Source of the DNA: a virus
DNA: 64,000 nucleotides
Virus record (IMG/VR): IMGVR_UViG_3300045988_168611
Coordinates: 32,001-96,000 of that record
Strand: one strand, 5' to 3'
In this document: in pieces, positions 3,425 through 60,440 of the stretch
Layout: each line of letters starts with the position of its first letter
Numbering within the stretch: the stretch's first letter is position 1
The notes under the pieces: model-generated
Databases searched by the model: none
The model's input: the letters and a program-made list of their open reading frames with translations, nothing else
What the model was told of the DNA's origin: nothing
Program-made: the position numbers and the translations under genes

Positions 3425-3513
3425 TGTCTTTATCATCGTTTTCTCTGGTATGATTAGGTTGGTGAATCAACCGAATCGAAACGACGTAAGAGAAAGGTAG
3501 AAAGGTGGTGCAT

Positions 3514-6500
3514 ATGGCTTTCGGACGAAAGAAATCCGGTGGAGCAGCGCCCCGTGAACACGGTAGCCAAGCGTGGAATCAACTCGGTAAGCAGGATGAG
3601 CTTGACTCACTGGCTTACCAGGATGTTCATGGTGACCAGCAGCTAGAACGTAGTGACATCGAGGCAAAGATCTCTCCGGTGTCGCGCGAAGTCGCATCGG
3701 CTGTTGCCGGTGTGCTCGTCTTCATCCTCGTGTGGGCATTGTTCTCGTTTGGCACGATGGGTGTGACCATGGGCCGTGACGCCCTGTGGCGTTCGTCTGT
3801 TCCGAGCTACGCAGTACAGAACAAGGCTCTGACGAAGGAGCTGGGCAAGCCTGTGTGGAGCGAAGGGTGTTTCTCCCCAGCTCTGGAAACAGGTGAGATC
3901 GATACGTCCGATGAGACGTGCTATGAGGATGCTGAGGATGTTCCTGAGCCACAGTGGCACGTGGATGCCGTCGCAGCAGAAAAGGCTGATCGAGATGCTG
4001 AGTTGGCTCAGCGTCCGAACAGTGCGATCGGTTGGATGCTGTCGTTCGATTGGCTGAAGTTCGTCATGTCGTCGATTGCTGGTCTTGTTGTGTGGGGCTT
4101 GCTGCGTATGCGTTTGCTGCGCAACCTCAAGGCGCAGAATCTCATGCGCGATACCACTGACATCAACCAATACAAAAATGACCAGCACGTAGCACTCCCC
4201 GAAGAAGTGCGTGAGCGTTTCGATGTGGTGCCTGATGTGGGTGCGCACACGGGCGTGAGTGCAACGACGCTGATCTCTCACTCGATGGTTTCGAACAAGG
4301 GCATCGAGAAGGTTGCGTTTGCACAGCGAGCTGAGAAGGACATTCTCGATGAGGATGGCGATGTGGCTCTGTTCGAGGGAGAAGCTCTCACGGACGACAA
4401 TGGCGATGTTGTGACCAAGATGGTTCCGATGTTTGACGAAGAGTTCGGCACAGCCCTGTGGAACGCATCAGGACTGCCGGATAACAAGCAACTGCGTCGC
4501 CGTCTCGATCCTCGTAACGTGCCGTACAACCCAGGCAATGCCAACCGAGATAAGCTCAAGGGTTTCAATACCCTGGCTGATCTGGTGAACGGTGAGTGGG
4601 AACTTCCAACGTATGAGCCACAGCGTCCGGCTGGCGTCTACTACGTGGATACAGCTCCTGCGAACACCATGATTCTGGCTATGACTCGTGCCGGTAAGGG
4701 TCAGACGTACATTGAGCCAATGCTCGATATTTGGATGCGTCAGAAGCGTCCAGACAACATGATCATCAATGATCCTAAGGGTGAGCTCTTGGTGAAGAAC
4801 TATGTCCGCGCTACCATGCGCGGATTCCAGGTTGTGCAGTTCAACCTCATCAATGCCATGAAGACTGACATCTACAACCCTCTCGGAATGGCGGCTGAGG
4901 CTGCTCGTGAGGGTGACCAAACCAAGTGTGCTCTGTATGTCGAGAACATCGCAGATGTCTTCTTCCCTGTGGACGGCGCAGAAGATCCCGTGTGGCCGAA
5001 CGCTGCGAACAACGCGTTCAAGCGTGCAGCATATGGTCTCATTGATTACTACCTGGAAGAAGAGCACCAGCTGCGTCAGTACGCGATGCGCCACGGTATG
5101 GATCAGAAGGTTCTGGAACAGAAGCTCGATGCCATGTGGGGCAAGGTGACGCTCTACAACTGCTACCAGCTGTTCGTGCAGCTCACGAGTAAGAAGCGTA
5201 AGTCTCCGATGACTCAGGTGAACGAGCGCATCAAGAGCGGCTACTACGATCAGCAGTCGTCCGATCCTGATGAAGTCGACGCTCTGATTGAGCACGACAA
5301 GATGCAGGCTGAGCGCATTGAGTTCCTGTGGGAAGGTAAGCCGGAGTCTGACCTGCTCACCCTGTTCTTCAACGCCACTGAGGCTTTGCCTCAGTCGACG
5401 ATGCGTACGTTGATCGCTAACGCGAACAACGCGCTGCGTGCAATGGCTGGAGCCGAGAAGATGCTCGCATCTGTGTACGGTATTGCTATTACGGCAATGT
5501 CATTCTTCACGGATCCGACGATCTCTACTTTGACCTCTGGTACGCCGTCGCAGAACACCGACCTTGGGGGTCTGTCGTTCCCTCGTCGTTTCGGTGTGCG
5601 TTTTGCTCAGAACTTCACCAAGCGTGATGGTCTTATTGGCGCTCAGGCGAAGTGGGATGCATTTGATGATCCTGAGTTGAAGCACAACCTCGGTAAGGAT
5701 TTCGAGCACGAGGATACTGTGGTTCGAGAAGGATGGGCCCGGTACTATTTCGACGGTAAGTTCCCACATGACGTTGCCTACCTGCGACTGCGTTTGTTCA
5801 ACACCCATACGGGTGTTCTCCTGAAGACGTTCTACTTCCAGTTCACGAAGGGCTACCAGCTCTCGCTGAATGGTCGTAAGTTCGTCAAGGATCCGATCAC
5901 GGGTCAGAAGATCGTCCGTAATGGTGTTCTTGTGGAGATGGTGAAGGGTGAGAACGGTGTTCTCGTTCCTGGTCATCTGCGTTATCCGGCAACCCGTCTG
6001 TTGGATAAGGCTGGCAGTCTCAAGACTGTGCGAGAGAATGTTCCTGCGATCATCTTGTCGTCGGTTCGTTACTCGGAGCAACCAAAGGCTGTGTTCCTCG
6101 TGACGCCGCCTCACTTAATGAAGTACGCGAAGCTCGTGCTGATTCTTGTGAAGCAGTTGGTGGATCTGAATTTCGACAAGTCGTATATGACGAAGGCAAA
6201 CCAGAAGCCGCTCTACAAGACTCGTTTCATGTTGGACGAGCTCGGCAACTTGCAGTCTGAGGGCCACGGTATCTCTGGTTTTGAGACCATGCTCTCCATT
6301 GGTCTGGGTCAGGAGCAGCAATTTACGCTGATTCTTCAGACGTTGCAGCAGGCCAGAGACGTGTATGGCGACAGTGTGGATAAGATCATCCAGGGTAACG
6401 TGGCGAACATTGTGTTCCTGAAGTCGACGGATGACACGATGATCGAAACTTTGGCCAAGATGTCTGGTACACGCCACCGCGCTGTGCGAGATTCGAAGAC

Positions 6501-7560
6501 GGTGACTCAGGATACTGAGCGTCTCATCGAAGGTTTGAACGTTGAGGGCAAGGTGTCGTACACGATCAGTGCGAAGGAGGAAAGTGTCATCGGGTACAAC
6601 GATTTGGCGTTCTTGCCGGAGCGTAACTCGATTATCTTCTCGGCAGGCATCTCGCCAATCTGGAACCGTAATGCGGAGATTCTTCCGATGTCGTGGCGCT
6701 TGTTCAGCAACACCATCAAACACCCAGGTCACGAGTATTCGCTACAAACTATTCCGACGCTCTCGTCGGCACTAGAGTTTGACGTGCGTCTCAACCAGCC
6801 TGACTTCATGAAGATGCTCGATAAGCGTATCGAGCAGGCTGCAAATGCAGCTGAGGCGATGGAGTTGTACCAGGAGGCATACGATCTGGATGATTATGGC
6901 ATCTCGATTCTGGATCCCGATGTGTACTCGGCTGAGGTTATGGACCTCATCGCCTCGATCGAGGAAGAGCGTAAGGGCCACGACATGGAGAACGAAGAGT
7001 ATGACATGGACAGTGACGAGGCTCTGCGTGCTCAGTTGGGCTCTGGTTACGACATGTTCAACGAGGATGACGAGATTAACGAAGATGTCCGAGAGGATCT
7101 TGCTGCTCGTCAGGAGATGTTGGCCGATCGAGCGAAGATGCGCTACGCGGAAGGTCAGATTAGCCGTGAGCATCTGATGAGTGAGAGTGGACAGGTGTTG
7201 CACCATCTCGATGGTGACATCATTGCTGCGTATCGTGAAGCGAAGCACCCAATGGCGTCTGATGCACGGTTCTTCAGAACCGATGCGAATGGTTCGCTGT
7301 GCTCGTTGGATGGACAGATGTACATCAGTCAGGGTGTGTCGAGTGATGAGCTGCGTACTCTCCAAGCTGCATCGTCCGATGAGACGAGCGGTGTGTATGC
7401 AGACGATGAGTCGATCTCTGAGATCGCGGATCTGGGCTCGTGGCGAGTTCATGATGCGTTCTATAGGTTCTTGCACGGCCTGGAGTCGTGGGAGGATCTC
7501 GGCGGAGGCGCTTTCGATCGCGCTATTGCGCGAGTGTTCGAACGTCGAGAGAACGAGTGA
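3514..7560 (+). CDS. Type IV secretion coupling protein (VirD4/TraG family) with N-terminal TM segments and long acidic C-terminal extension
   Basis: ATG at 3514 follows GAAAGGTGG. Two hydrophobic helices lie near the N-terminus. The VirD4-type P-loop context is MILAMTRAGKGQTYIEPMLDIW...INDPKGELL. The Walker B / TraG motif is RFMLDELGNLQ...FTLILQTLQQARDVYG...NIVFLKSTD. Confidence 0.85.
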   Translation: MAFGRKKSGGAAPREHGSQAWNQLGKQDELDSLAYQDVHGDQQLERSDIEAKISPVSREVASAVAGVLVFILVWALFSFGTMGVTMGRDALWRSSVPSYAVQNKALTKELGKPVWSEGCFSPALETGEIDTSDETCYEDAEDVPEPQWHVDAVAAEKADRDAELAQRPNSAIGWMLSFDWLKFVMSSIAGLVVWGLLRMRLLRNLKAQNLMRDTTDINQYKNDQHVALPEEVRERFDVVPDVGAHTGVSATTLISHSMVSNKGIEKVAFAQRAEKDILDEDGDVALFEGEALTDDNGDVVTKMVPMFDEEFGTALWNASGLPDNKQLRRRLDPRNVPYNPGNANRDKLKGFNTLADLVNGEWELPTYEPQRPAGVYYVDTAPANTMILAMTRAGKGQTYIEPMLDIWMRQKRPDNMIINDPKGELLVKNYVRATMRGFQVVQFNLINAMKTDIYNPLGMAAEAAREGDQTKCALYVENIADVFFPVDGAEDPVWPNAANNAFKRAAYGLIDYYLEEEHQLRQYAMRHGMDQKVLEQKLDAMWGKVTLYNCYQLFVQLTSKKRKSPMTQVNERIKSGYYDQQSSDPDEVDALIEHDKMQAERIEFLWEGKPESDLLTLFFNATEALPQSTMRTLIANANNALRAMAGAEKMLASVYGIAITAMSFFTDPTISTLTSGTPSQNTDLGGLSFPRRFGVRFAQNFTKRDGLIGAQAKWDAFDDPELKHNLGKDFEHEDTVVREGWARYYFDGKFPHDVAYLRLRLFNTHTGVLLKTFYFQFTKGYQLSLNGRKFVKDPITGQKIVRNGVLVEMVKGENGVLVPGHLRYPATRLLDKAGSLKTVRENVPAIILSSVRYSEQPKAVFLVTPPHLMKYAKLVLILVKQLVDLNFDKSYMTKANQKPLYKTRFMLDELGNLQSEGHGISGFETMLSIGLGQEQQFTLILQTLQQARDVYGDSVDKIIQGNVANIVFLKSTDDTMIETLAKMSGTRHRAVRDSKTVTQDTERLIEGLNVEGKVSYTISAKEESVIGYNDLAFLPERNSIIFSAGISPIWNRNAEILPMSWRLFSNTIKHPGHEYSLQTIPTLSSALEFDVRLNQPDFMKMLDKRIEQAANAAEAMELYQEAYDLDDYGISILDPDVYSAEVMDLIASIEEERKGHDMENEEYDMDSDEALRAQLGSGYDMFNEDDEINEDVREDLAARQEMLADRAKMRYAEGQISREHLMSESGQVLHHLDGDIIAAYREAKHPMASDARFFRTDANGSLCSLDGQMYISQGVSSDELRTLQAASSDETSGVYADDESISEIADLGSWRVHDAFYRFLHGLESWEDLGGGAFDRAIARVFERRENE

Positions 7561-9520: not shown

Positions 9521-9549
9521 TCGAAATAGGGGTTTTTCTCGGGTAGAAT
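9521..9549 (+). promoter_or_regulatory. Candidate sigma70-type promoter of the RNAP operon
   Basis: TCGAAA (9521-9526), a 17-nt spacer, then TAGAAT (9544-9549), about 60 nt upstream of the ATG at 9608. Confidence 0.35.
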
Positions 9550-9607
9550 GGAGGGCGTAATACCCGATCGATCCAGTGGATCGAAACTCCAGGAAGGAGA
9601 ATGCGTT

Positions 9608-12600
9608 ATGCAAACGCGCAATGCCGGACTCCGGCGTTACATGTACGAGCACATGATCGCTCGTACGATCAATCGAACCTCAGAATTGACCAAGACTCCC
9701 ATTCTTGTGTCGCAAGGTCGACGCCTGAGGGATCTCATGGAAGAGCGTCTCAACGAACAAGGCCGTTCTTTCAACGATGGTGATCTCCCTGTTGCTGATG
9801 CGTTGAACGCTATTCAAAGCGTCATGCAGGAGAACGTTCCCGGTTACAAAGACTTGTTCCAACCTGCCGATACGTCGAGCAAGGGTTACAAGGCCCTGTA
9901 TGAAGAGTTCAGGAACATGGTCGGTCTGAATGGCTCTGCTGGAGCTGCTGGTCCTCGTCTGCCGATCTCTCCGTATGATCCTCGGTGGGGGAGCCGTCGC
10001 ACTGTGAAGCAGGCGGGAACGTCTATCCTGTACGTTCTTGATGGTGACATCGCTGCGTATGCAGACGGTAAGCCGAGCAATGTTGAGAAGGTGACGACCT
10101 CGGAGCTCACTCTGTACCGCCTGACTGACGAAGGGAAGGCCAAAGAAGCAGGCCGCGCGTTGAGCCTTGATGATGTCTCGGGTCTCACCGAGCTCATGGG
10201 TCGTATGTCGACGGCTGAGTACAACGAGGTTCGTCAGTGGGTGCTGGACGGTGCTCGCAACCCTGAAACGGGGCGTTACAACGCCCGTCAGTTCATGAGC
10301 ACTGAGGCATTGGCTCGTTCCCGAGCTGTGCTCGATATGCTGGCGGAAGAGGGAATTCCGTACACGATCGAGAAGGATCTGCGTCCTGGCCAGATTCGTG
10401 CGCGTTTGACGGGCACGAATATGACAGTGCGCCTGACTGATACTCGCGACAAGGAGCAGTGGGTGGGCCGTGTTTACGACAACGGTGCGACTTTGTACTT
10501 CTCCACGACGGCTCGTCGAGACAACAAGCAGGTGGCGTATGTGCCAACTGTTGACGAGGTGTGCGACCTCGTGCGCGTTGCGTTGGGTCGACCGGTGGAG
10601 CGTAAGGACGGCAAGGGCCTCGTGGGCCGAGTGGGCGAGCGTCAGACCAGCAAGGGTAAGACGGTTCAGGAGTCGTATCTCTCCACTGGAACACTGACGA
10701 GTGCGTACAAAGACATGCCCGGTATGAACAGTGAGCAGATCGTGATTCGTCGTCAGATGAAGGAGCGTTCTGCGTCGTCCCGGTTCTTTGCTGATACACC
10801 AGAGGGCCGTGAGCAAGCGTCGGCATTCATCTCTGATGCAGTTCACAGCGCTCGCCACAACGTGGCTGAGCAGCTGGATGTCGATGGTCTGATCCAGCAG
10901 TTCCGCGATCACGAGGATGCTGCCCGTGAGGGCGCGTACATCCCTATGTTGTCTGGTGATCCTGATCTGGCGGCAGTTGGCCGTGCGTACTGGGATGTGC
11001 TTCGTGGTGCTGAGACGACGCTACTGAAGCCCGAGGCTACTCGTGCTGAATACGCTGAAGCGACGGGTCTGCTTGACGACATGGATCAAGAGAGCGATCT
11101 GTCGGGTGTTCACGACATGTTGGTTGGTTCCGTGGCGTACACGGGTACCCCGGAAGAGCGCGTTCGCGCTCATCTTCGGGATCTTCTCGATACCCAGATC
11201 GGTATCGATGAGCCTATCGACTCTGATGACTTCGTGTTCGATCCGGTGCGCGTTGCTCGTTACATGGCGAGTGAGCACGGCCAGTGGCGCAATAATGATG
11301 ATCTCGTGGCAGCTATGCGCAGTGCAGGTGTGCCCCAGGAGAAGATCGTCGGGGAGTCGTTCTACTCCAACACGTTCCGCGATCGACTGATCACTTTCGA
11401 TGAGTCCACGGCGTTGCCGATGGATGTCGTGGAGGATACCTTTACTCAGTCGATGCTCCAGGTCGTGTCGGATACGCTGGAGTCCTGCGCTGTGACGCCC
11501 GGTTCTATCCGCGTCGACGCCAACGGTGTTGTGGAGTGGACTGGCTCGATCATGCGCTCGCAGACAGGTAAGGAAGAGCCCGTGAGCGGTACGATCGGAC
11601 AGATCTTTGCTCGCGGCGAGAACGGTGAGATCATCACCCGGTTCAATTCCGGTAACGATCTGATGATCGTGCCTGGTTTTGATGCCCGTGTGGTGGCACA
11701 GAAGCCTGGGGAGAACAAGTCCCTCGAAGAGCGCACCCGGCTGATCGGTTACGAACAGCAGATGAGTGACGCGATTCGATACCGAGTTCAGGCTGATGTG
11801 CTCTCAGGTCGTTCCCGTGTGGGCGAGCCTGCCTCGCTGAACAGCGTGTACCGTCGTTTGTCGGATACGCGCCATCGCGCGGATCACTACGAGCGCGCTC
11901 TCGAAGAAGGCATGGATCGGAAGATCCTTGATGCCATTCTTGCTACCGAAGCGCGTCGTGTGCGTTACCCGAACGCTTTGCGTGATGGGTCGACGATCGA
12001 CGCTGACTTCCGTGCATCTCGTGCTCGGGAACAGGGTATTGGTGGCGATCCGGCCAACGACACGACCATGGATCCGTGGGTGTTGACCGGCGGTCGCAAT
12101 ATGTCGTTGCTCAGCGAAGAAGCCGATGGCTACTTCGATCCGATCATGACATCGGGCGGTGTGAACCAGGGTGTCACCCGTTACCTCGTGTCCGGTGCGC
12201 AGGTGAACCCTGATGGTTCGATCGTGCGTTCTGATAAGAACGATCGTGCGCCGCTGATGTTGACTGAGCAGGCTCAGCTGATGAGCTACGACCCGTTCGA
12301 TCGTCAGCAGATGACGACCTCCAATCTCATGAACGCATCGTCTGTGACGAAGCCTGTGGGTACGGCGTTCATGACTGCCGGTGGTTGGACGATGGAGGAC
12401 TCCATCGTTGTGTCTGCTGACTTCGCTCGTCAATACCGTGTTCGTGGCACTGATGGTCAGATGCGTGATCTGATCGTTGGCGACAAGATCTCTGACATGC
12501 ACGGCAACAAGGGTGTTATCTCGCTCATTGTTGACCGTGACGCGGATCTGTCTCCTGATGAGATCGAAGAGCTTCATGGGTCGACCGATATGATGACGCT

Positions 12601-15058
12601 CTTCCGGGAGAATCCGGGTCTGGATGTCGTCATGGCACCGTTCAGCGCTGTGTCTCGTTTCAACGGTGGTTCTGCCCGTGAGGCAATGCAGGAGACTGCG
12701 CCGCTTCGTTTGCCCAACGGTACGACCGTTGAGGCCGGTATGGGTAAGGTGTCGTTCATCGGTACCCATATGACGGTGGATGCAAAGACAGCCGCATACG
12801 ATGAAGCTGCGATCCGGGCTGGCCAGGGCCGTAAGGCGTCGTCTCAGCTTGCGTGGGCGTTGCAGTCCCAGGGCTGCGATAAGGTGCTGGAGCAGATGTA
12901 CGGTGGCAACCTACAAGCTCTTGCACAGCTGCGTGAGATGGCTCTGGTGTGCGGTTTGGACATCGAGCCTGATGGCACCTTGCGTGATGGTCATGATGAT
13001 CTTGCTGTCGGTGGGCAGCGCCGTCTCATTGAGATGGGCGATGTTCCGCTCACTGAACGTGGATCGTTCGACGTGCGTCGCGTTCGTAACGATTTCGCTT
13101 CGTTGATTGGTGACGCTGGCGGTGATATGGAGATTCCGTTCCCGCTGACGATGCCAACGGGTGCTCGTACGCCTCATGCGACTGATACGACGTGGCGTGT
13201 GCCGGTGCTGAGCTCGCATCTGCGATCGGGCCAGGATCTTGACGACGGTACGTCGACGGTCCATGACTACACGTATCGCTACCTTGCGATCCGTGAATGG
13301 TCGCTGCGCTACAAGCATGCTGCTGATCGAGCTGCGTCTGGTGAGCTGACTGGCAAGGAGCTTTCTGATGCTCGTCGAACGATGGCTGAGGCGATGCATC
13401 GCGCTCAGACTGCGTACGATGGCATTGCACAGGACATCATGCGTCGCCGGTTCACCGGCAAGCGCAATGTCTTCAAGGAAGGTCTCATGGCTTCGCGTCT
13501 GCCGCACTCGGCCACTGCTGTGTGGACGGGTGATCCTCGTCTGGACATCGACCAGGTCGGTGTTGGCCCGGAGCTGGCGAAGAAACTGCATCTGCGTGAC
13601 GGTGATTACGCGCTTGTGTGGCGTGACCCCGTTCTTCGTGATGCGGGTGTGCGTTACATGCGCGTGAGCCTTGACGATCGTCTCACTGGTGTGAGTGTCA
13701 ATCCCAATATGGTCAAGTGCTTCGACGGCGATTTCGATGGTGACTCTGTTGCCGTCGTGAAGCTGGGTGATGGTCCGGCACATGAGCAAGCGCTGGAGCG
13801 CCTGACTGTCGAGGCTAACCTCATTGATCTGGGTCAGAGCATGGATGACGAGGGTCGTTACCCTCTTGCGATGCACAACGCGCTCGATGTGAAGGTGTCG
13901 CAGCACTACGATTCTCGTCATGCGGATGCGATGGATGAGGTCCACCAGCGTGCGAACGACGCCTACTATGATCTCGTGGAAGGGGAGGCTAATCGCGAGC
14001 AGTTCCTGGACGAGGGTCGTGATGTCGTGGATGCAGCGTCCTACATGTACCGTGAGGCGCTCAAGCATCAGTACGGTGAGGCTGTGTTGTCGTTTGGTTC
14101 CGTTCAGGAGCACATGAAGTCTGTGGAGGCTGCGTGTATTGAGACGGGAGCTAAAGGCTCGCCTAAGAAGATGCTGGATTATGCTCGATACATCGGGTAT
14201 GACCCGGAGAACCAGGTGGATCTGGTGACCACGCGCGTGACGCGCGAGGAACAGCTGGGTACCATGTATGCAACGGCTGTGAAGTCGTTTGGTACCGGTG
14301 TTGCCGGTACGTTCTCTCAGCGCGGCGTGCGAGCTCTTCGTAACGACGAGCTCAAGGCTGTGTTGGAGCTGACGTACCCGGTGACGCAGAGTATTCTGCA
14401 AGCCAAGCACGATCCGGTGGATGCTCGTCACCGGTATGAGCTGCTGATGGGTCCGGCTCGAAGCTTGTGGCGTGGTCAGGCGATTGCACAGGATGGCAAC
14501 GGTGTGTGGAACACTGTGACGGACGACGATCGTAAGCCGGTTCAGGCCACCAAGGATCAGTGGGTTGCCATGTTCTCGCAGTTCTACGGCGATGCAGGTC
14601 TGGGTGTGGCTGTGAACAGCGACAACATCACGAAGGTTGCAAATGCGCTCAGCGATAGCAACGGAGTGATGGTGAACCTGGAAGATGAGAAGGTCATTGA
14701 GCAGCTTGCTTCTCCGATGGATCGTCTGGCTTACGGCGGTGACTTCACCACGATGCAAGCGTTGGCTGAGGCTCACGCTAACCTGTTCGAGGGTCAGTGG
14801 AACGCCAAGTTTGCGCCAGCTCGTGTGCGTGAGGTGATGGAGGCCGATGTGGAGACGCAGGCCGAGGCACCGGTGATCGCCATGGAAGACACAGTGGCTC
14901 GTGTGGATCGTGATGAGAAGATCGGTCGACGTAAGTCGACATCGTGGGCTGTTCCGGTGCGTTCGCATACGGGTACCAGTGCAGCTGAGCGTTACGGTCT
15001 GACGGCACAGGTGGACAATGAGGCAGATGTGTCTGTCGACGACGGTTTCGAGTTGTGA
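9608..15058 (+). CDS. Single-polypeptide RNA polymerase with fused beta-like and beta-prime-like double-psi beta-barrel modules
   Basis: ATG at 9608 lies 9 nt after GGAAGGAG. Beta motifs: MEDSIVVSADFARQYRV, GDKISDMHGNKGVISLIV (nt 12478-12530), LDVVMAPFSAVSRFNGG. Beta-prime motifs: RRRFTGKRNVF, GDPRLDIDQVGVGPELAKKL, VWRDPVLRDAGVRYMRV, catalytic CFDGDFDGDSVAVV (DFDGD at nt 13730-13744), GAKGSPKKM and the bridge-helix-like ATAVKSFGTGVAGTFSQRG. Confidence 0.85.
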   Translation: MQTRNAGLRRYMYEHMIARTINRTSELTKTPILVSQGRRLRDLMEERLNEQGRSFNDGDLPVADALNAIQSVMQENVPGYKDLFQPADTSSKGYKALYEEFRNMVGLNGSAGAAGPRLPISPYDPRWGSRRTVKQAGTSILYVLDGDIAAYADGKPSNVEKVTTSELTLYRLTDEGKAKEAGRALSLDDVSGLTELMGRMSTAEYNEVRQWVLDGARNPETGRYNARQFMSTEALARSRAVLDMLAEEGIPYTIEKDLRPGQIRARLTGTNMTVRLTDTRDKEQWVGRVYDNGATLYFSTTARRDNKQVAYVPTVDEVCDLVRVALGRPVERKDGKGLVGRVGERQTSKGKTVQESYLSTGTLTSAYKDMPGMNSEQIVIRRQMKERSASSRFFADTPEGREQASAFISDAVHSARHNVAEQLDVDGLIQQFRDHEDAAREGAYIPMLSGDPDLAAVGRAYWDVLRGAETTLLKPEATRAEYAEATGLLDDMDQESDLSGVHDMLVGSVAYTGTPEERVRAHLRDLLDTQIGIDEPIDSDDFVFDPVRVARYMASEHGQWRNNDDLVAAMRSAGVPQEKIVGESFYSNTFRDRLITFDESTALPMDVVEDTFTQSMLQVVSDTLESCAVTPGSIRVDANGVVEWTGSIMRSQTGKEEPVSGTIGQIFARGENGEIITRFNSGNDLMIVPGFDARVVAQKPGENKSLEERTRLIGYEQQMSDAIRYRVQADVLSGRSRVGEPASLNSVYRRLSDTRHRADHYERALEEGMDRKILDAILATEARRVRYPNALRDGSTIDADFRASRAREQGIGGDPANDTTMDPWVLTGGRNMSLLSEEADGYFDPIMTSGGVNQGVTRYLVSGAQVNPDGSIVRSDKNDRAPLMLTEQAQLMSYDPFDRQQMTTSNLMNASSVTKPVGTAFMTAGGWTMEDSIVVSADFARQYRVRGTDGQMRDLIVGDKISDMHGNKGVISLIVDRDADLSPDEIEELHGSTDMMTLFRENPGLDVVMAPFSAVSRFNGGSAREAMQETAPLRLPNGTTVEAGMGKVSFIGTHMTVDAKTAAYDEAAIRAGQGRKASSQLAWALQSQGCDKVLEQMYGGNLQALAQLREMALVCGLDIEPDGTLRDGHDDLAVGGQRRLIEMGDVPLTERGSFDVRRVRNDFASLIGDAGGDMEIPFPLTMPTGARTPHATDTTWRVPVLSSHLRSGQDLDDGTSTVHDYTYRYLAIREWSLRYKHAADRAASGELTGKELSDARRTMAEAMHRAQTAYDGIAQDIMRRRFTGKRNVFKEGLMASRLPHSATAVWTGDPRLDIDQVGVGPELAKKLHLRDGDYALVWRDPVLRDAGVRYMRVSLDDRLTGVSVNPNMVKCFDGDFDGDSVAVVKLGDGPAHEQALERLTVEANLIDLGQSMDDEGRYPLAMHNALDVKVSQHYDSRHADAMDEVHQRANDAYYDLVEGEANREQFLDEGRDVVDAASYMYREALKHQYGEAVLSFGSVQEHMKSVEAACIETGAKGSPKKMLDYARYIGYDPENQVDLVTTRVTREEQLGTMYATAVKSFGTGVAGTFSQRGVRALRNDELKAVLELTYPVTQSILQAKHDPVDARHRYELLMGPARSLWRGQAIAQDGNGVWNTVTDDDRKPVQATKDQWVAMFSQFYGDAGLGVAVNSDNITKVANALSDSNGVMVNLEDEKVIEQLASPMDRLAYGGDFTTMQALAEAHANLFEGQWNAKFAPARVREVMEADVETQAEAPVIAMEDTVARVDRDEKIGRRKSTSWAVPVRSHTGTSAAERYGLTAQVDNEADVSVDDGFEL

Positions 15059-20882: not shown

Positions 20883-20904
20883 AGGAGGACGGCATAAGGG
20901 CTTG

Positions 20905-54095: not shown

Positions 54096-54530
54096 TCAGC
54101 CACATGTCACAGGGCTATAACAACGCTGTTTTCGAAGCAGTGGAGAGCCCTGTTACATGTGTGAATACCGTGTTGTTGCGTGGTTGTTGTATGGCTGCCT
54201 ATTCCCCATCTGAGACTATCTCTCTTTTCGAGCGTGTCTCAGATGGGGGTACAACAGATAAAACAGAACGTGAATCACCACATGTGACAGCCTTCGTATA
54301 AACGCTTGCGTAGCAACGTTGTAGATGTGGTGTGCAGCAGCTTTGTATTCGTTGTTTTGCCTAGAGGCTGAGAACCCATTTATCTGTGCCTCGTATCAAC
54401 GTCTTGAAACAGCCCAGTAACAGCGCTGTAGCGCTGTTGTAGCATGCGTCCGTATCACGGTTGTGACCATCGATCGATACAGCCTAAATAAACGTTGTGA
54501 TGCATGGTTATGCGTGTCTGTGACAGCCTT
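54096..54530. repeat. Dispersed repeat array ACAGCC-N(3-7)-TAA(A)C(A/G)
   Basis: Copies: CACAGGGCTATAACAACGCTG (54102), GACAGCCTTCGTATAAACGCTTG (54286), AACAGCCCAGTAACAGCGCTG (54408), TACAGCCTAAATAAACGTTGTG (54478) and GACAGCCTTTAGCC (54521). An inverted AGCGTTTATA lies at 54064. TGTAGC-type words occur at 54311-54330, 54426-54443 and 54618. Confidence 0.55.
54204..54249. repeat. CCCC(A)TCTGAGAC hairpin family member
   Basis: CCCCATCTGAGAC pairs with GTCTCAGATGGGG around a 19-nt loop. Confidence 0.6.
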
Positions 54531-54627
54531 TAGCCCCGGTTGATGACTGCCTGAATGCGCAGCTGCAACCGGGGCTGTGATGCAGCGTGGCTGCGTATCT
54601 GGCTGTGCTTAGACGTTTGTAGCTGGC

Positions 54628-54991
54628 GCAATGGTGACCAGATAATGGCCAATGAAAGACCAATAAGTGGTCAATGGTGACCAGTTTGGAGCCGGATAAG
54701 CGCCAGAGGATAGTAAGAGGCAGCAGCAGGTCTTTATCTGGTCCAATGATGGCCAGATAAAGGCGCTTTGTTGGCCGCTCTATGACCGGTGGTACCCTAT
54801 GGTCGTTATCGGGTTCTTTGTTGGCCTCATAACGGCCCATTATTAGACCATGTAAGAGCCAGGAGACAGCCCGGATCAATGATGGGTCAACAATGGGCGG
54901 AAGATGCGCCAGTGTATGGCGCAATGGTGACCATAGTGTGGCGCTTTCCGGGTCAGGAAAAGCCTAGTAGATGCTGGTGCAATGGTGGTCA
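54628..54991. repeat. Direct-repeat array (GC)AATGGTGACCA, often flanked by GGCGC/GCGCC
   Basis: Copies: GCAATGGTGACCAG (54628), TCAATGGTGACCAG (54671), CCAATGATGGCCAG (54743), TCAATGATGGGTCA (54876), GCAATGGTGACCAT (54920) and GCAATGGTGGTCAT (54978). Partial copies are ATAATGGCCAATG (54642) and ACAATGGGCGG (54889). Confidence 0.65.
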
Positions 54992-55149: not shown

Positions 55150-55247
55150 GCTGTGGGCCTACGCACACTGACTACCTGCTCAGTTTTAGTACGTAGAAGC
55201 CAATCGATCAAGATCAATGACAAGACCGAAAGAGAGGTGTGATCTCT

Positions 55248-56975
55248 ATGAAGATCCCTCGTCAATCCAACAAGCAGCTCATTCGACCTGGCTTGCGTCG
55301 GCTGCCTGTGATGGCAGCCCTGACTGTAGCGATGGGCGCATCTGTTGCAGTGATGCCGACTACCGCTGCAACCGCCGCGCCTGCCAGCGCAGAAAGTACT
55401 GCGAGCACTGCCGGGCTACCGGCTGCTGTCGCAAGTGGCTACAAGATGACGTTCCACGATGAGTTCGACGGCGACAAGCTCGATACCTCTAAATGGGGTT
55501 ATCAGTACGGCTGTTTCGATCCTGCGCAGCGATCGCAAGCGCAGTACACCGACTCTCCCGATAACGTCTCTGTGCGAGATGGTTATCTGAATCTGACGGC
55601 CAGGTACTCGCCCATGAAGACCAAGTGGGACGGCTCGCAGATCGCGCGCACCTGCAAGGACGGCAGCACGACCTATGATGCCCCGTTCACGTCGGGCATG
55701 GTCACCACAAAAACAAAAGACGGCAAGGTGTTGTATGCCGCGCCAGGAACCGGCTTCTATGCCGAGGCGCGCGTCAAGCTTCCGACCGCACGTTCGTCCT
55801 GGTCTGCTTTCTGGGGTACCGGTACCAAGGGTGGCTGGCCCGGTAACGGTGAGATCGACGTGTTCGAGTCCAAGGGCTACGACCCGAGCTTCTTGATGAG
55901 CAACATCCACACTCCCAGGGTCGGCAACCCCAAGAAGACCCAGCAACACCAGGGCATGATGAAGGGCGACACTGCGACTTCTCAGAGCGAGTTCCATACC
56001 TACGGTGTCTTGAAGACCGCTGATGCCATTGAGTTCTACTTCGATGGGAACATGACTCACCGCGTGAAGATGCAGGATATGAAGGGCGCGAGCAACCCCT
56101 TCGCGGATCCAGAGAACGGTCTGGTGTTGAAGCTCAACCAGATGGTGGGCGGCAGCTACTTGGCCAAGCACGACAACTGGTCGGATAAGACCTTTGTCGA
56201 TGCAAGCAAGTACGCGGATGACTACAAGAGCGCTGATGGCGCGGGTTCGACCATGTATGTCGACTACGTGCGTGTGTATGAGCCGAAAACCCAGGCAGAT
56301 CAGCCTGCCCAGCCTGCTCCTGCCCCTGAGCAACCGACTCCGACGCCTGCTCCCGAGCAGCCCGCGCAGCCTTCTGAGCCTACGCCCACCCCTGCTCCAG
56401 AACAGCCTGCACCTGAGCAGCCAACTCAGCCTGAGACCCCGGCCCAGCCTGAACAACCTGCGGTTCCAGAAACGCCTGCTGCACCTGAGACTCCGGCTCA
56501 ACCCGAGCAACCTTCTCAGCCAGAGACTCCTGCCCAGCCTGAGCAGCCCGCTCCTGCTCCGACTCCAGAGCAGCCAGCACCTACGCCTGCCCCTGAGCCC
56601 TCTCAGCCTGCGCCTGTGACTCCGGCACCTGCGAAGCCCACCCCTGAGCAGCCTGTTCCGGCCAAGCCAACGCCTGCACCGGCGAAGCCAACTCCGGCCA
56701 AGCCTCAACCAGCACAGCCTGTTCCGTCTCAGCCGTCTCAGCCGTCCGATAACCAGACTGACCAGAACAGCCAGCAGTCTGGACAGGCAGAGCAGAACAG
56801 CCAGCGGTCTGAACAGGAGGGGCAGAGCAAGCAGACCAAGCCAGAGCAGCCCAAGAAGTCACAGAAGCCTAGTGCTGATCGTTTGGCGAACACGGGTATG
56901 ACCTCGTGGTATCGCCCGATCGTTGTCATGTGGCGAAGCTTCTGTGGCTGGATCACCAGCTGGTGGTTCTGGTGA
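55248..56975 (+). CDS. Secreted, probably cell-wall-anchored glycoside hydrolase family 16 (beta-glucanase/laminarinase-like)
   Basis: ATG at 55248 follows AGAGAGG. The signal peptide is ...AALTVAMGASVAVMPTTAATAAPASA. The GH16 catalytic motif is WPGNGEIDVFES (ExDxxE). A long PAPEQP/PETPAQPEQP linker follows. The C-terminus carries LANTG (LAxTG-type sorting motif) plus a hydrophobic tail. Confidence 0.85.
   Translation: MKIPRQSNKQLIRPGLRRLPVMAALTVAMGASVAVMPTTAATAAPASAESTASTAGLPAAVASGYKMTFHDEFDGDKLDTSKWGYQYGCFDPAQRSQAQYTDSPDNVSVRDGYLNLTARYSPMKTKWDGSQIARTCKDGSTTYDAPFTSGMVTTKTKDGKVLYAAPGTGFYAEARVKLPTARSSWSAFWGTGTKGGWPGNGEIDVFESKGYDPSFLMSNIHTPRVGNPKKTQQHQGMMKGDTATSQSEFHTYGVLKTADAIEFYFDGNMTHRVKMQDMKGASNPFADPENGLVLKLNQMVGGSYLAKHDNWSDKTFVDASKYADDYKSADGAGSTMYVDYVRVYEPKTQADQPAQPAPAPEQPTPTPAPEQPAQPSEPTPTPAPEQPAPEQPTQPETPAQPEQPAVPETPAAPETPAQPEQPSQPETPAQPEQPAPAPTPEQPAPTPAPEPSQPAPVTPAPAKPTPEQPVPAKPTPAPAKPTPAKPQPAQPVPSQPSQPSDNQTDQNSQQSGQAEQNSQRSEQEGQSKQTKPEQPKKSQKPSADRLANTGMTSWYRPIVVMWRSFCGWITSWWFW
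56290..56720 (+). repeat. In-frame degenerate tandem repeats encoding a Pro/Gln/Glu/Thr/Ala linker
   Basis: Reiterated cctgagcagcc / cctgagac(c/t)ccggc units encode PAPEQPxQPETPAQPEQP. Confidence 0.8.
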
Positions 56976-57022: not shown

Positions 57023-57088
57023 GAAAGCCCCTGCGGGCGTCAACGCTGCGTCATTAAGACTGAGCAGCGAAGACCCGCAGGGGCTTTC
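57023..57088. terminator. 15-bp-stem, 36-nt-loop hairpin after the GH16 gene
   Basis: GAAAGCCCCTGCGGG pairs with CCCGCAGGGGCTTTC. The loop holds an inner GCTGC/GCAGC hairpin. Confidence 0.55.
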
Positions 57089-57184: not shown

Positions 57185-57325
57185 TCAGCCCACGAAGTAA
57201 TCGATGGTGTTGGTGGTCAGGAAGATTGCGAACCACACGACGAGCGTGACACTCAGCAGCCTGAGGCCAGGGGTGGTGTCAGCGTAGATCCATTCATAGA
57301 GGTTGGTGAGCTTGTTCTTCAGCAT
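57185..57325 (-). CDS. Small membrane protein (46 aa; below the ORF-track cutoff)
   Basis: The ORF encodes MLKNKLTNLYEWIYADTTPGLRLLSVTLVVWFAIFLTTNTIDYFVG, preceded by AAAGGAAAG 5 nt upstream. It lies downstream of conserved element A. Confidence 0.5.
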   Translation of the reverse strand: MLKNKLTNLYEWIYADTTPGLRLLSVTLVVWFAIFLTTNTIDYFVG

Positions 57326-57425
57326 GGTTGCTTTCCTTTGCGGATTGAGAGAGGTGTGAGACAGAGAGTTCTGTCAATTCAGGATTCGGGGCATCGATAG
57401 ATGCCCTGTTAACAAGAGGGAGAGG
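57326..57425 (-). promoter_or_regulatory. Conserved upstream element, copy A (hairpin 57389-57406)
   Basis: Alignable with copies B and C, including GGTTG(C/T)TTCCTT (RBS complement), CAGTTC..GATTCGGGG and the hairpin GGGCATC-GATA-GATGCCC. Confidence 0.55.
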
Positions 57426-57483
57426 TATCCTTGTTGTGGCGTGAGCCAAGCAACAAGAATCCAAGAATCAAGGAGGATGAATC

Positions 57484-58329
57484 ATGAGAATTATGAGCGA
57501 GATTGTGGATCCGGAGGGATGGCTTGCACTACTCCCCAGACGAATTGATTGGTCAATGAACAGCTATACTCACCCGAAGTGGCTCAAGGTTCCACCTTTT
57601 GACGATAATGAGGAAGGCTCTGATGTGTTGAACCCAGTGGAGAATGTCAGCTCTGCTTTGGTTGATGCGGTTGTTGACTGTATGGCTCGCTTTGCGTTGG
57701 GAGTTTCTGTAGAAAAGGCATTTTCGATGCCTTTGAGGTATTTCCAAGCGCACAGGGGGCGTAGCGAGGCATCGGACCTTATGAATGCCATCAAAGGTCT
57801 GGACGACGGATCCATCATCAACGCTGTGAAGCTGTTTAGGTTTGCTGACTATGATGATCGTTTTGGTATCGGGCACCTTCCATTTAATGAGGGTATTGAG
57901 CCCGATGAAGCGACGATCCAGAACGTGAGAATGATGGTCGAACGCTCGCTTCGTTTCTTCAAACCGCGTGGCCCAGAGTGGTGGAATGGGAAGATGCCTG
58001 AGGGGTTCACGCTCGCGCGTGAGAGCTTTGTCCCTGTTCGTATACCTGACGGAGACGCTATGTTGCCTGATACCTGTTGGGATCTCAAGGCATCAGAGTC
58101 ATGCCCGACGACGTATGATGTGCTTCGATTGATCATGTACCGTTTTATAGGGATTTGTTCGAATTGCCCATGGTTGTTCCGAGATATTCCCTATCTAGGT
58201 GTCTACAACCCCCGTCTGGATGAAGCCTATCGGATCAACGTTGGCGACATCTCTGAGGATATGATTGCCGAGGTTGAGGGATGTGTGATCTACCACGCTT
58301 TGCGTCGATTGCGATCATACCTGATTTAG
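57484..58329 (+). CDS. Hypothetical protein (281 aa)
   Basis: AAGGAGG lies 7 nt before the ATG. No motif recognised. Confidence 0.65.
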   Translation: MRIMSEIVDPEGWLALLPRRIDWSMNSYTHPKWLKVPPFDDNEEGSDVLNPVENVSSALVDAVVDCMARFALGVSVEKAFSMPLRYFQAHRGRSEASDLMNAIKGLDDGSIINAVKLFRFADYDDRFGIGHLPFNEGIEPDEATIQNVRMMVERSLRFFKPRGPEWWNGKMPEGFTLARESFVPVRIPDGDAMLPDTCWDLKASESCPTTYDVLRLIMYRFIGICSNCPWLFRDIPYLGVYNPRLDEAYRINVGDISEDMIAEVEGCVIYHALRRLRSYLI

Positions 58330-58333
58330 AAAC

Positions 58334-58400
58334 ATAGCCCCTCTGAGACAGCGCCAACGCCTGTTTATTAACAAGCGAGGCTACGTCCCAGAGGGGCTAT
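58334..58400. repeat. CCCCTCTGAGAC hairpin family member (bidirectional terminator position)
   Basis: ATAGCCCCTCTGAGAC pairs with GTCCCAGAGGGGCTAT around a 35-nt loop, between convergent genes. Confidence 0.65.
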
Positions 58401-58431
58401 CTGTGTTGTTGGGCTAGGATCTCATCACAGA

Positions 58432-59295
58432 TCACAGATCGACAGGACGGAAGTCCTGCGTGATGAGGTGCTTCGCGCACTGCAACGGCGAGCACTTATC
58501 GAAGTACTCCCACTGTGTCATACCACTCATGATCTGGCAGGCTGCCCTCAGGACGATCGGCGGCCTGTAATCCCATGACGTTTCATCGCACAGCTTTTCC
58601 GGTGTGAGATCCTCCAGCGGGGTGGGCCACACATCCAAACAGTCAATCCTGTTGATGTTCACGCCATACACCGTTGCACAGTCCTGGATGTAACCCGGCA
58701 TGATGAGCGACGGGAAATCCCACGATGTGTCGCGGCGCTCCGCATCAGCTTCAGCTGCCTTCTTGTGAGCCCACTTGCCCTTGGTGAGACCAGGCAAGTT
58801 GATCTGATCCACGGGTGCCATGACAGCCATCTTACCCAGCTTGTCTGCGTTGTCATCGGACTGGGCAGAGTCGACAGTGCATGCCACAGGACGGCACTCG
58901 GCGGGCGAGTGTACAGTCTTCATCTTTGTCGCATGCGCGAGAGCACACTCAGCTGCCCATTCACCGAGAATACGGGGAATGATGACACAGCCATCTGTGT
59001 TCCAGCCCCAGAAGAGCGCACCCTGAACAGGCTCGTCCTGGTACGCCGCCGACTTGTAGATCAGCCTGTCGCGCCTCGACGGGATGAGCACAGAGCCTTC
59101 CCAGTAATGGTCGCCGTCTGAGTCTTCGTCGAATGCTTCGACGAGAATGCCGCCGTAACCGAGGTCGTAGACATCTGCCGCTCGGTGGTAGTAGCGGATG
59201 TCTTCAAGTTCCTTGATGAGATCGCTTCCCGCTTCTGTCATGGACAGAGCCTGGATCATGGTGTGGGCCGCTTCATGGTTGACTTGGTTCAACAT
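58432..59295 (-). CDS. Hypothetical protein (287 aa) with N-terminal HEAAH
   Basis: AAAGGAAAC precedes the ATG. Residues 7-11 read HEAAH (HExxH-like). No other family signature recognised. Confidence 0.6.
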   Translation of the reverse strand: MLNQVNHEAAHTMIQALSMTEAGSDLIKELEDIRYYHRAADVYDLGYGGILVEAFDEDSDGDHYWEGSVLIPSRRDRLIYKSAAYQDEPVQGALFWGWNTDGCVIIPRILGEWAAECALAHATKMKTVHSPAECRPVACTVDSAQSDDNADKLGKMAVMAPVDQINLPGLTKGKWAHKKAAEADAERRDTSWDFPSLIMPGYIQDCATVYGVNINRIDCLDVWPTPLEDLTPEKLCDETSWDYRPPIVLRAACQIMSGMTQWEYFDKCSPLQCAKHLITQDFRPVDL

Positions 59296-59380
59296 GGTTG
59301 TTTCCTTTGAGTGTGAATTGTGGATGAGAGTAGGACTCAGTTCTGCGATCGGGACATCGCAGATGTCCTGCTAACAAGAC
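59296..59380 (-). promoter_or_regulatory. Conserved upstream element, copy B (hairpin 59352-59368)
   Basis: CTCAGTTCTGCGATCGGGACATCGCAGATGTCCTGCTAACAAGA. The hairpin is GGACATC-GCA-GATGTCC. Confidence 0.5.
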
Positions 59381-59402
59381 ACAGTGGTGAGAGAAGAAAA
59401 AA

Positions 59403-59484
59403 ATAGCTCCCCCACCCCGCCTCATTCTCTGTCGAGCGTGTGTCACCACACTGCTCTGAGAGAGGGTGGGGGTAGGGGAGCTAT
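59403..59484. repeat. Large-loop hairpin (variant of the intergenic family)
   Basis: ATAGCTCCCCCACCCC pairs with GGGGTAGGGGAGCTAT, with additional inner pairing GCCTC/GAGAG. Confidence 0.5.
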
Positions 59485-59503
59485 CTGGAGACGGTGTTAC
59501 TGC

Positions 59504-59773
59504 TCAGTCTTCGTACTCGTAGTACTCGCGAGCACTACGGTAGTAGCCCTTGAGCGAGTTCCTGAGTTCCTGACGCTTGCTACGCTTCTTAGCACGACGA
59601 GCAGCAACCCTGGCCTTGCCGGGTGCATCGCCGCAGCAGACACAGTCACGGCCACCAGGGCCGTACGGGCACGTGCACCCAATCATGGTCACGTGAGTGG
59701 GGCTCGCCAGAGCCAGAGCGTCGAGCATAGTAGATATGTCAGTGTTGTGGGAACGCTTGTTACGACGAGGCAT
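59504..59773 (-). CDS. Small basic Cys-rich protein (89 aa)
   Basis: AAGGA lies 7 nt before the ATG. The protein contains GCTCPYGPGGRDCVCCGD followed by an Arg/Lys-rich tail. Confidence 0.5.
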   Translation of the reverse strand: MPRRNKRSHNTDISTMLDALALASPTHVTMIGCTCPYGPGGRDCVCCGDAPGKARVAARRAKKRSKRQELRNSLKGYYRSAREYYEYED

Positions 59774-59832
59774 GATTCATCCTTGTGTGTGTAGTTGTTG
59801 GTTGAGTGGGTAGTGGGTGAAAGTGGGTTGGT

Positions 59833-60231
59833 TCAGAGCTCGATGGGATCGTCGCCCCAGTACGTAACGTTCTCGTCGCGTAGAGTCTGGATAGCCTTCT
59901 GGTCGGAGTTAGGCGATGTGGCGACATAGAGCGCGTTGATGAGTTTGCGCAGACGTGCTGATGTCGTCTCGTCGTGATTGAATGCGCCCGGTACAATGAA
60001 GACCTTCGGGGGCTTGTTTCGAGACGGGTCGTAATCAGGACGAAGCCGCACTGTCGCGATGAAGGTTCGGGAGGCGAAAACCCTGTAGTCGATCGCCGTA
60101 GGAGTGAGTCGGGTCATCTGTACGATGGTGAAATCCCCTGCGATCGGAATGATCATGGGTTGGTCGCGCAGCAGCTCCTGCGCTGCTGCGTCGATGTCAG
60201 CGAGGATGGTAGACGACTGTGACTGAGTCAT
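59833..60231 (-). CDS. Hypothetical protein (132 aa)
   Basis: AGAAGGAAC precedes the ATG. The gene lies downstream of conserved element C. Confidence 0.6.
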   Translation of the reverse strand: MTQSQSSTILADIDAAAQELLRDQPMIIPIAGDFTIVQMTRLTPTAIDYRVFASRTFIATVRLRPDYDPSRNKPPKVFIVPGAFNHDETTSARLRKLINALYVATSPNSDQKAIQTLRDENVTYWGDDPIEL

Positions 60232-60330
60232 GGTTTTGTTCCTTCTGGAGATAAAGAGTGGTGACAGAGAGTATCTATCAGTTCAAGATTCGGGGCATTG
60301 ATAAATGCCCTATATATAGGAGAGGGAGGA
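60232..60330 (-). promoter_or_regulatory. Conserved upstream element, copy C (hairpin 60293-60310)
   Basis: GACAGAGAGTATCTATCAGTTCAAGATTCGGGGCATTGATAAATGCCCTATATATAGGAGAGGGAGG. The hairpin is GGGCATT-GATA-AATGCCC. Confidence 0.55.
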
Positions 60331-60336: not shown

Positions 60337-60354
60337 AAAAAAAAAGGGGGGGGG
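60337..60354. repeat. Abutting homopolymers A9 G9
   Basis: A9 at 60337-60345 and G9 at 60346-60354, in an intergenic region. A second tract, C6 G8, lies at 60426-60439. Confidence 0.9.
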
Positions 60355-60376
60355 TAGGCGAGAGATCAGAAAACTA

Positions 60377-60440
60377 ACCCCTCTGAGACGTACCTGCGAT
60401 CGTGCTGATCACATACTGTCTCTATCCCCCCGGGGGGGGT
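60377..60440. repeat. CCCCTCTGAGAC hairpin family member
   Basis: ACCCCTCTGAGAC (60377-60389)...GTCTC (60418-60422)...GGGGGGGGT (60432-60440), downstream of the 60449 stop. Confidence 0.5.

Follow-up and report, generated by a model that had tools for sequence, protein, structure and literature searches.

We examined a 64,000-nucleotide stretch of DNA that is catalogued as viral (IMG/VR record IMGVR_UViG_3300045988_168611, positions 32,001 to 96,000; hereafter the window), in which the minus-strand regions immediately 5' of three gene starts, at 57325, 59295 and 60231, can be aligned with each other. Each region carries a module with a small hairpin, which we refer to as copies A, B and C. 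Copy A precedes the gene for a 46-aa hydrophobic peptide (57185..57325, minus strand; present in the open reading frame list and called on a public contig), copy B precedes the gene for a 287-aa Cys-rich protein (58432..59295, minus strand), and copy C precedes a two-gene unit (59504..60231, minus strand) of called genes that encode proteins of 132 aa (59833-60231) and 89 aa (59504-59773). Neither the 46-aa peptide nor the two proteins of the copy C unit have a Pfam match. The 287-aa protein has no match in Pfam or PHROG, and its AlphaFold2 model is unusable (pLDDT 32); it has 127 homologues with 70-93% identity, all of them on contigs of this element family.

The modules themselves are found on the minus strand at 57347..57420 (A), 59308..59382 (B) and 60248..60324 (C), and were identified both by pattern matches and by a covariance model (78.9, 63.0 and 80.2 bits, respectively), as well as from the sequence for copy A. 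Their 7-bp stems close short loops: the hairpin is GGGCATC-TATC-GATGCCC in copy A (57406-57389), GGACATC-TGC-GATGTCC in copy B (59368-59352) and GGGCATT-TATC-AATGCCC in copy C (60310-60293). A preliminary description of this DNA, made without database searches, had reported the three alignable regions and their hairpins, and we find that the positions are exact, that the strand is minus, and that the loops (TATC, TGC and TATC) are 3-4 nt long, as it said. In all three copies the stem is followed by a nearly invariant CGA (57386-57388, 59349-59351 and 60290-60292), with GAAYTGA 8 nt further on (GAATTGA at 57374-57380 in copy A) and a CTCTCT tract beyond it (57363-57368 in copy A). The module thus consists of a hairpin with a 3-4-nt loop, the CGA, and the motif WY-N3-GAAYTGAYAGA...CTCTCT, which we propose to be a single-stranded-type motif and the third part of the module. 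The block that the cassettes have in common runs from ~12 nt before the stem to the CTCTCT tract, and is ~60-75 nt long. The element of about 95 nt in the preliminary description was therefore conserved over this part only; beyond it, each cassette has a leader of its own, in which an AAGGAA serves as ribosome-binding site (RBS). The distance from the stem to the start codon, which lies behind this AAGGAA, is 63 nt for copy A, 56 nt for copy B and 61 nt for copy C.

These occurrences are not expected by chance. The pattern TCGGGRCATYN{3,4}RATGYCC has three matches in the window compared to 0.00 expected (100 shuffles), and the covariance model, run over the whole window with filters off, returned copies A-C only, all on the minus strand with E values from 1e-19 to 1e-14, and no weaker copies. 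For copy B only, an 8-bp alternative pairing is predicted (TCTGCGAT/ATCGCAGA, 59345-59364, minus strand), in which CGATCGCAGA, further downstream, pairs with the loop and 3' arm and would compete with the conserved hairpin; this pairing is probably incidental, since it has one mismatch in most B-type relatives.

To examine the hairpin in a larger set, we gathered relatives by means of the 287-aa protein and of DNA patterns, which yielded 53 distinct module copies. The pattern used for selection left the choice between purine or pyrimidine independent on the two arms, so that it admitted 256 arm combinations, of which 16 are fully paired. Across the 53 copies, 99.5% of the cells of the 7-bp stem form pairs, and compensatory double changes have occurred at four of the seven stem pairs; thus, the pairing kept through compensatory changes, which had been proposed from three copies, holds in the larger set. 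The observed covariation score was reached by none of 500 shuffles, pairing drops to just 29-44% in slid registers, and the conserved stem is the sole helix that RNAalifold predicts on the alignment. Non-compensatory changes in further copies, which the preliminary description had named as evidence to the contrary, are rare: just three of the 53 stems are imperfect. In two of these, the mismatch is A.C when read on the coding strand and would be G.T on the template strand; the third has U.G on the coding strand.

The 53 copies comprise eight stem haplotypes, and these do not simply follow the genes behind them. Orthologous gene B cassettes carry either GGACATC or GAGCGTC, and orthologous gene A cassettes carry GGGCATC, GGGCGTT or GGGCGTC. 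Because orthologous cassettes have different stems, the stem changes do not go back to one inherited event. Nevertheless, the copies are related by descent, and the shuffle statistics overstate their independence. We consider it close to certain that the hairpin is a selected nucleic-acid structure, in which pairing and not sequence is under selection.

Further copies, which the preliminary description had suggested seeking with a covariance model, were indeed found. The source genome contains two additional copies (E and F) just past the end of the window. Copy E (L001 4022-4098) has the stem GGAGCATC/GATGCTCC, and copy F is a divergent fifth type at the head of a small-gene run, with the stem GGCGCTGC/GCAGCGCC followed by GATAAACAGATTGAT. 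The copy F stem is almost wholly different from those of the other types with its pairing kept; a variant with ...GT/AC... before GATAAACAGATTGAT also occurs, and in one relative the eighth pair has changed from C:G to T:A. The source genome thus has at least five copies inside 13 kb, all in its accessory arm. With the covariance model, ~20 more copies were found in five relatives, every one in gene orientation, and none in the tra arm of the relatives.

The cassettes behind these modules are separated by strong terminator-like structures. A long hairpin with a T9 run closes the upstream unit before copy C (60337..60431, minus strand; -42 kcal/mol, then TTTTTTTTT), and another with a T7 run closes the copy C unit before copy B (59394..59486, minus strand; -59 kcal/mol, z -5.1). 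A third lies after gene B, between convergent genes (58334..58400, minus strand; -54 kcal/mol, z -7.7), and a fourth, with a T run, lies after gene A (57023..57088, minus strand; -49 kcal/mol, z -7.3). Copies B, C and E each lie ~30 nt behind a hairpin of this kind (-42 to -59 kcal/mol) and its T run, and copies A and F lie in divergent intergenic regions. The cassette terminators (57023-57088, 58334-58400, 59401-59486 and 60346-60431) are 65-85 nt long and far stronger than ordinary intrinsic terminators, and it may be that such strength is needed to stop a non-host polymerase. The sequence GTCTCAGAGGGG is present both in the hairpin after gene B and in the structure that precedes copy C. The module hairpin itself was considered as an intrinsic terminator and rejected: its stem is followed by CGAAT or CGATC on one strand and by TGTTAAC or TATATA on the other, and it is absent from the terminator scan.

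We find that the position of the module, upstream of the RBS of each unit, is not accompanied by host promoter boxes. The region at 54-64 kb contains a single sigma70-like site where 6.0 would be expected, and it is not at a module; the preliminary description had likewise seen no sigma70 -35/-10 pair. The actinobacterial-type box TANNNT is found in no alignment column in more than 12 of the 53 copies. An extracytoplasmic function (ECF)-type GGAAC-N17-GTT layout is absent on inspection of the alignment, and Rfam gave only sub-threshold matches to miRNA precursors, on the long terminators. The layout is that of a promoter not obviously recognised by the housekeeping holoenzyme, and we regard it as likely that the module is a promoter.

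The loop, unlike the stem, is conserved at its ends, which read T...C on the coding strand and G...A on the template (plus) strand. The template-strand loops are GAA (18 copies), GATA (18), GACA (3), GCA (2), GGAA (1) and GGTA (1), such that 43/53 copies have a 5'-G..A-3' loop on this strand and 10/53 do not fit; about half of the loops are 4 nt long. The closing pair, on the template strand, is C:G in 45/53 copies.

The modules also coincide with points at which the cassettes differ between relatives. In some relatives the A-type module is followed by the 46-aa gene, whereas in others the same module precedes a 138-aa gene, the junction being directly behind CTCTCT, and in another relative a C-type hairpin is fused to a D-type leader, again with the junction after CTCTCT. 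In relative L003 (11725-11797), an A-type module has been kept while its 46-aa gene is deleted; the hairpin GGGCGTT-TTC-AACGCCC is intact, and CGA has become CAA and TTGATAGA has become TTGTTAGA, so that this gene-less module is a possible decaying copy. Copies A and C, the latter with its two-gene unit, are missing in some relatives. These sequence comparisons point to cassettes having been swapped at the module between relatives.

A similar arrangement is found in the PeSLs (early promoter plus stem-loop) of T4-type phages, in which repeated modules of terminator and promoter stand on either side of small ORFan cassettes within a plastic region, cassettes are gained, lost and replaced between close relatives, and the junctions are at the module (PMC2839356, PMC4122927). 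Homologous recombination between the repeated modules accounts for the PeSL swaps (PMC4122927). In a PeSL, however, the promoter part is an early promoter of the host sigma70 type and the stem-loop serves as terminator, whereas the modules described here have no sigma70 box and have a second, small covarying hairpin within the promoter-like module itself. If the repeated modules double as recombination points that swap cassettes between relatives, as we propose, they document promoter-mediated cassette shuffling outside the T4-type phages.

The element that carries the modules is a conjugative plasmid-like replicon of ~118 kb with a MobL relaxase and a type IV coupling protein (T4CP), and is not a phage. 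A 118,163-nt Joint Genome Institute (JGI) metagenome contig is identical to the window over 10.4 kb and encodes the same 287-aa protein sequence. Many homologues of this protein are on contigs of 100-128 kb; the fetched contigs with a named source are human oral metagenomes, and species-representative genomes gave a single match, to a contig that had been binned with an uncultured Actinomyces. The VirD4-like T4CP is encoded at 3505..7560 (plus strand; Pfam T4SS-DNA_transf, 3e-19; NCBIfam conju_CD1115, 3e-44). In a relative that is 99% identical over the first open reading frame of the window, a MobL relaxase gene (E value 1e-62) lies ~4-6 kb upstream of the point corresponding to the window start, which puts MobL ~60 kb from the modules on the map. 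The element also encodes its own replisome, a MazF/PemK-type toxin (20437-20895, minus strand; E value 4e-19), consistent with a plasmid addiction module, and a cell-wall hydrolase, which we take to be of the kind known from Gram-positive transfer systems. Genes for ParM-like, sortase and antigen I/II-type adhesin proteins are present in relatives. No virion genes were seen in the ~105 kb sampled, and the nucleotide similarity to phages amounts to just one 96-nt match at chance level, to a Streptomyces phage. We therefore rejected the phage identity under which the family is listed (viral in IMG/VR; 'MAG TPA Caudoviricetes sp.' in TPA records), and its cataloguing as viral is probably a misclassification, because the gene content is of the conjugative-plasmid type.

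The candidate reader of the module is an 1836-aa single-chain two-barrel RNA polymerase (RNAP), encoded at 9548..15058 on the plus strand, which has matches to Pfam Rpb2 domain 6 and Rpb1 domain 2. Its DFDGD metal-binding motif aligns to that of the tape-measure-fused virion RNAP of Thermus phage P23-45 (8h2n). Full-length homologues with 39-43% identity are encoded on Gordonia, Rhodococcus and Streptomyces plasmids, and more distant or partial homologues on Staphylococcus and Lactococcus plasmids; on the phage side, there is only a weak match to the P23-45 group. In the Gordonia, Rhodococcus and Streptomyces plasmids, the ~1800-1900-aa polymerase gene directly follows the T4CP gene and is annotated as 'hypothetical protein' (homologues at L058 20001-25820, L166 9124-14862 and L167 8986-14532). 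The same order of coupling protein and polymerase is kept in the window, with one opposite-strand gene inserted between them (7644-9428, minus strand), which encodes a 594-aa protein with four DUF4379 treble-clef zinc fingers. We found no description of a two-barrel RNAP in a transfer cluster in the literature.

The strands of the element differ in composition over long distances. The plus strand is G-rich, and mostly T-rich, in every 2-kb stretch of the window and of the recovered flanks of relatives, and the sign of the GC skew is constant over at least 85 kb (window; L062, L001, L003 and L004), regardless of a switch in gene orientation at ~18.3 kb. Such a skew points to asymmetric replication or to a preference for one strand, from which the cassette genes are transcribed, to be single-stranded DNA (ssDNA), and is compatible with the plus strand as the transferred strand.

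The closest precedent for such a module is the set of early promoters read by the virion RNAP of coliphage N4, known from the Rothman-Denes laboratory. In N4, it is the template strand that folds into the hairpins; a sheared 5'G:A3' pair in the loop together with C:G as closing pair makes them stable, every stem sequence is tolerated as long as it pairs, and transcription starts at a fixed distance from the loop, the centre of which is at -11 (PMC4496689). The modules share with these promoters a small hairpin with a very short loop (stems of 5-7 bp in N4 and of 7 bp here), a stem with free identity provided that pairing is kept, the G...A loop and C:G closure on the template strand in most copies, a conserved purine (the A of CGA) 3 nt past the 7-bp stem, which is the start point in N4, the lack of sigma70 boxes, and a mobile element that brings a dedicated polymerase. 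The likeness of the loops is a resemblance and not a proof. There are also differences: the enzyme here is a single chain of the two-barrel beta/beta' type but that of N4 is T7-like and carried in the virion; the replicon here is conjugative and plasmid-like but N4 is a podovirus; and the module does not resemble the N4 consensus in sequence. The N4 precedent invoked in the preliminary description gains support from the template-strand loops and from the possession of an own RNAP, but does not hold for the kind of enzyme.

The other precedent it offered, the single-strand promoter Frpo, does not fit. In promoters of the Frpo type, an extended imperfect duplex restores the -35 and -10 boxes that host sigma70 RNAP reads, and the transferred strand of the leading region is the template, while the modules have a 7-bp stem without such a pair and without a conserved TANNNT. 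The resemblance to the Frpo and single-strand initiation (ssi) sites in the leading regions of F and ColIb-P9 is in other respects: secondary structure on a conjugative element would enable early expression, and the genes behind it are small, without function by annotation, and all in one direction.

Phages with two-barrel RNAPs provide a third comparison. P23-45 gp96 and gp64 are of the same polymerase class, gp96 being the best solved relative of the window enzyme, and phage RNAPs of this kind use element-specific motifs in place of sigma70 boxes. The AR9 non-virion RNAP reportedly recognises the template strand of its promoters (PMC5449584). P23-45 and AR9 differ from the present case in being phages, not plasmids, and AR9 promoters are not known to us to contain a hairpin. 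The word 'hairpin' is absent from the P23-45 paper (PMC10770324).

In the reading that we favour, every copy would serve as promoter for a separate transcription unit of one or two genes within the accessory-gene arm. The hairpin would be recognised as a structure; its sequence drifts while its pairing stays. The functional form would be a DNA hairpin on the template (plus) strand, either extruded from supercoiled DNA or formed on incoming ssDNA, and the reader would be a non-host RNAP, most likely the element's own 1836-aa enzyme. If the geometry of N4 applied, the first transcribed base would be the conserved purine of CGA, 3 nt past the stem. We infer the start site, the strand that folds and the polymerase that reads the module; folding of the template strand and reading by the own polymerase, which rest on analogy and co-occurrence, are the best single reading of the data. 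Taken as a whole, the chain from promoter module through template-strand DNA hairpin to the element's own polymerase has, in our estimate, slightly less than an even chance of being correct.

Several observations weigh against this chain. Conservation in N4 spans -17 to +1, but here the conserved block extends ~35 nt past the N4-type start point; the start at the module is putative, and transcription could start near CTCTCT, with the hairpin as an upstream element. The loops are 3 or 4 nt and not strictly 3 nt, and on the template strand a G..A loop is lacking in the E-type and F-type copies and in one copy of the B type. The direction of wobble leaves the folding strand unsettled, because G.T occurs on the template strand twice and G.U on the coding strand once. 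We know of no hairpin-dependent promoter for any two-barrel RNAP. Finally, comparable modules were not found on four plasmids that encode homologues of the polymerase: Gordonia pGKT2 gave no match to the covariance model, and repeat searches and reading of intergenic regions in Gordonia pGKT2, Rhodococcus pGS01, the Streptomyces plasmid and Staphylococcus SAP020A revealed no comparable repeated module. Two of these plasmids do have a single hairpin at the head of a small-gene run, namely GCCGGGGC-AAG-GCCCCGGC followed by CGGAAACGTG in Gordonia pGKT2 (L058 ~35990-36030, reverse) and an imperfect CCAGGGC-AAC-GCCCAGG followed by CCGGACGTG in Rhodococcus pGS01 (L166 ~22730-22770, reverse). By position and form, these may be distant counterparts of copy F.

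The same features were weighed under four other explanations. The main rival is a hairpin that acts as RNA. In that case, an unrecognised host RNAP promoter would lie just upstream, the 5'-terminal stem-loop would stabilise the mRNA or bind a regulator, and the conserved tract would be a leader element. Stem-loops at the 5' end that protect mRNAs from 5'-end-dependent decay are well known (ompA, ermC and aprE), and the modules resemble these leaders in having a short stable hairpin some 60 nt ahead of the start codon, close to where the 5' end is presumed to lie. As DNA, the coding strand forms a stem of the same stability (-6.9 to -7.6 kcal/mol), a G.U pair is seen once on that strand, conservation continues for ~35 nt 3' of the stem as it would in a transcribed leader, and some copies have TATATA directly before the stem. 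Such a leader, however, presupposes promoter sequences ahead of the stem, where we see none that are conserved: the ~30 nt between the T run and the stem are not conserved across cassette types, TANNNT is no more frequent per column than stated above, and with a TATATA that abuts the stem, transcription would begin within the 5' arm. Moreover, wobble pairs, which are usual in covarying RNA helices, account for only one of 368 cells, there is no Rfam match, and the RNA loop ends would be U..C, which is not a known stable loop, whereas the bias to G..A suits the opposite strand. We think it unlikely that the hairpin works as RNA. A host RNAP with an alternative sigma factor or a plasmid specificity factor could instead read GAAYTGAYAGA...CTCTCT, with the hairpin or cruciform as an operator or architectural element. 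Sequence conservation is indeed concentrated in a motif that occurs once per module, past the stem, the distance to CTCTCT varies in the manner of a spacer, and many proteins of the element have no assigned function. On the other hand, the motif is unlike the ECF-type GGAAC...GTT layout, and there was no sigma factor or helix-turn-helix regulator among the proteins scanned. A dimeric operator, furthermore, does not need its half-sites to change jointly; because the half-sites do co-change, and four stems coexist in one genome, intrastrand pairing is favoured and a dimeric operator is rejected. This explanation seems to us rather improbable.

Two further explanations assign the hairpin a role in DNA transfer or movement. 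The modules could be single-strand initiation sites at which an RNA primer for the complementary strand is made on transferred ssDNA, similar to single-strand origins (sso), ssi or Frpo, with expression as a by-product. This would suit a conjugative element with a MobL relaxase and a T4CP, the location of the polymerase inside the transfer cluster in several plasmids, and one strand that is G/T-rich for at least 85 kb whatever the gene direction, as expected from exposure as ssDNA; the transfer of primases is an established strategy (PMC5512222). However, the copies are restricted to the accessory arm, and there are at least five in 13 kb, at a fixed distance before the RBS and start codon and after a terminator. 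Because of this copy number, the fixed spacing and the terminators, the layout is that of mRNA promoters and not of one or two priming sites, and we hold a priming function to be quite improbable. Alternatively, the hairpin and its 3' flank might be a recognition and nick site for an HUH enzyme (a relaxase or a transposase-like protein) or another recombinase that moves the cassettes, in the manner of attC, IS200/IS605 ends or oriT. A hairpin with a conserved 3' single-strand motif is the general form of HUH substrates, which the module resembles, and the cassettes are present, absent or swapped among relatives with junctions at the module. Yet the covariance model found no copy near MobL, where an oriT would be expected, there is no integrase or transposase beside the cassettes, and each cassette has one hairpin, at its 5' end only and with a fixed spacing to the start codon; recombination between repeated modules suffices to explain the swaps (PMC4122927). 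An integron attC or HUH hairpin, for which an imperfect palindrome at cassette ends would be expected, was rejected on the perfect stem, its restriction to the 5' side and the lack of a recombinase beside the cassettes, and we give a recognition site of this type very little credence.

Structure-dependent promoters have been described in only a handful of systems, foremost N4 and the F and ColIb single-strand promoters. If the element's own polymerase reads the module, hairpin promoters have arisen convergently in an unrelated enzyme class, and conjugative plasmids of Actinomycetota have a host-independent transcription system, which bears on how establishment or anti-defence genes of plasmids are expressed right after transfer. 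The question is directly testable, since five natural stem variants are present in one genome together with a defined polymerase gene. An extension of this reading is that a family of Gram-positive plasmids uses a two-barrel RNAP from the transfer cluster to initiate at small template-strand DNA hairpins, possibly on the incoming strand and possibly after co-transport of the enzyme; we consider it doubtful, but if true, it would provide host-independent early expression, and plasmids would have reinvented the N4 strategy with an unrelated polymerase fold.

A second upstream motif, unrelated to the hairpin module, is found elsewhere in the window. The sequence TTTATTCA has six occurrences where 0.6 would be expected, each of them between genes and on the minus strand (24065-24072, 26834-26841, 28642-28649, 29990-29997, 30005-30012 and 43864-43871). 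These sites come after long hairpins and 5-15 nt before the RBSs of genes of the replication module, and TTTATTCA probably represents another class of promoters, whose leaders are very short. P23-45 also has two promoter classes, for its two polymerases (PMC10770324), and thus resembles the present element in having two motif classes in one genome.

Other features of the window are of less direct relevance to the modules. An iteron-like repeat, TGGCGCAATGGTGACCAGATAATGGC, is present in three copies, and two large non-coding regions are rich in GCTACA/GCTGCTACA repeats; these features (54624-54942; 45695-46705; 53696-54507) are candidate origins (oriV or oriT). At the start of the window, 51-926 (plus strand) encodes the C-terminal part of a 1257-aa ClpB-like AAA+ protein (L062 7103-10876), which has an intein-like LAGLIDADG homing-endonuclease insert, and a second ClpB-like gene is found at 24948-26816. 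Finally, a glycoside hydrolase family 16 gene (55239-56975, plus strand) lies on the opposite strand inside the minus-strand block, and the C-terminal half of this gene contains Pro/Glu/Gln-rich repeats with an 18-nt period (56279-56734).

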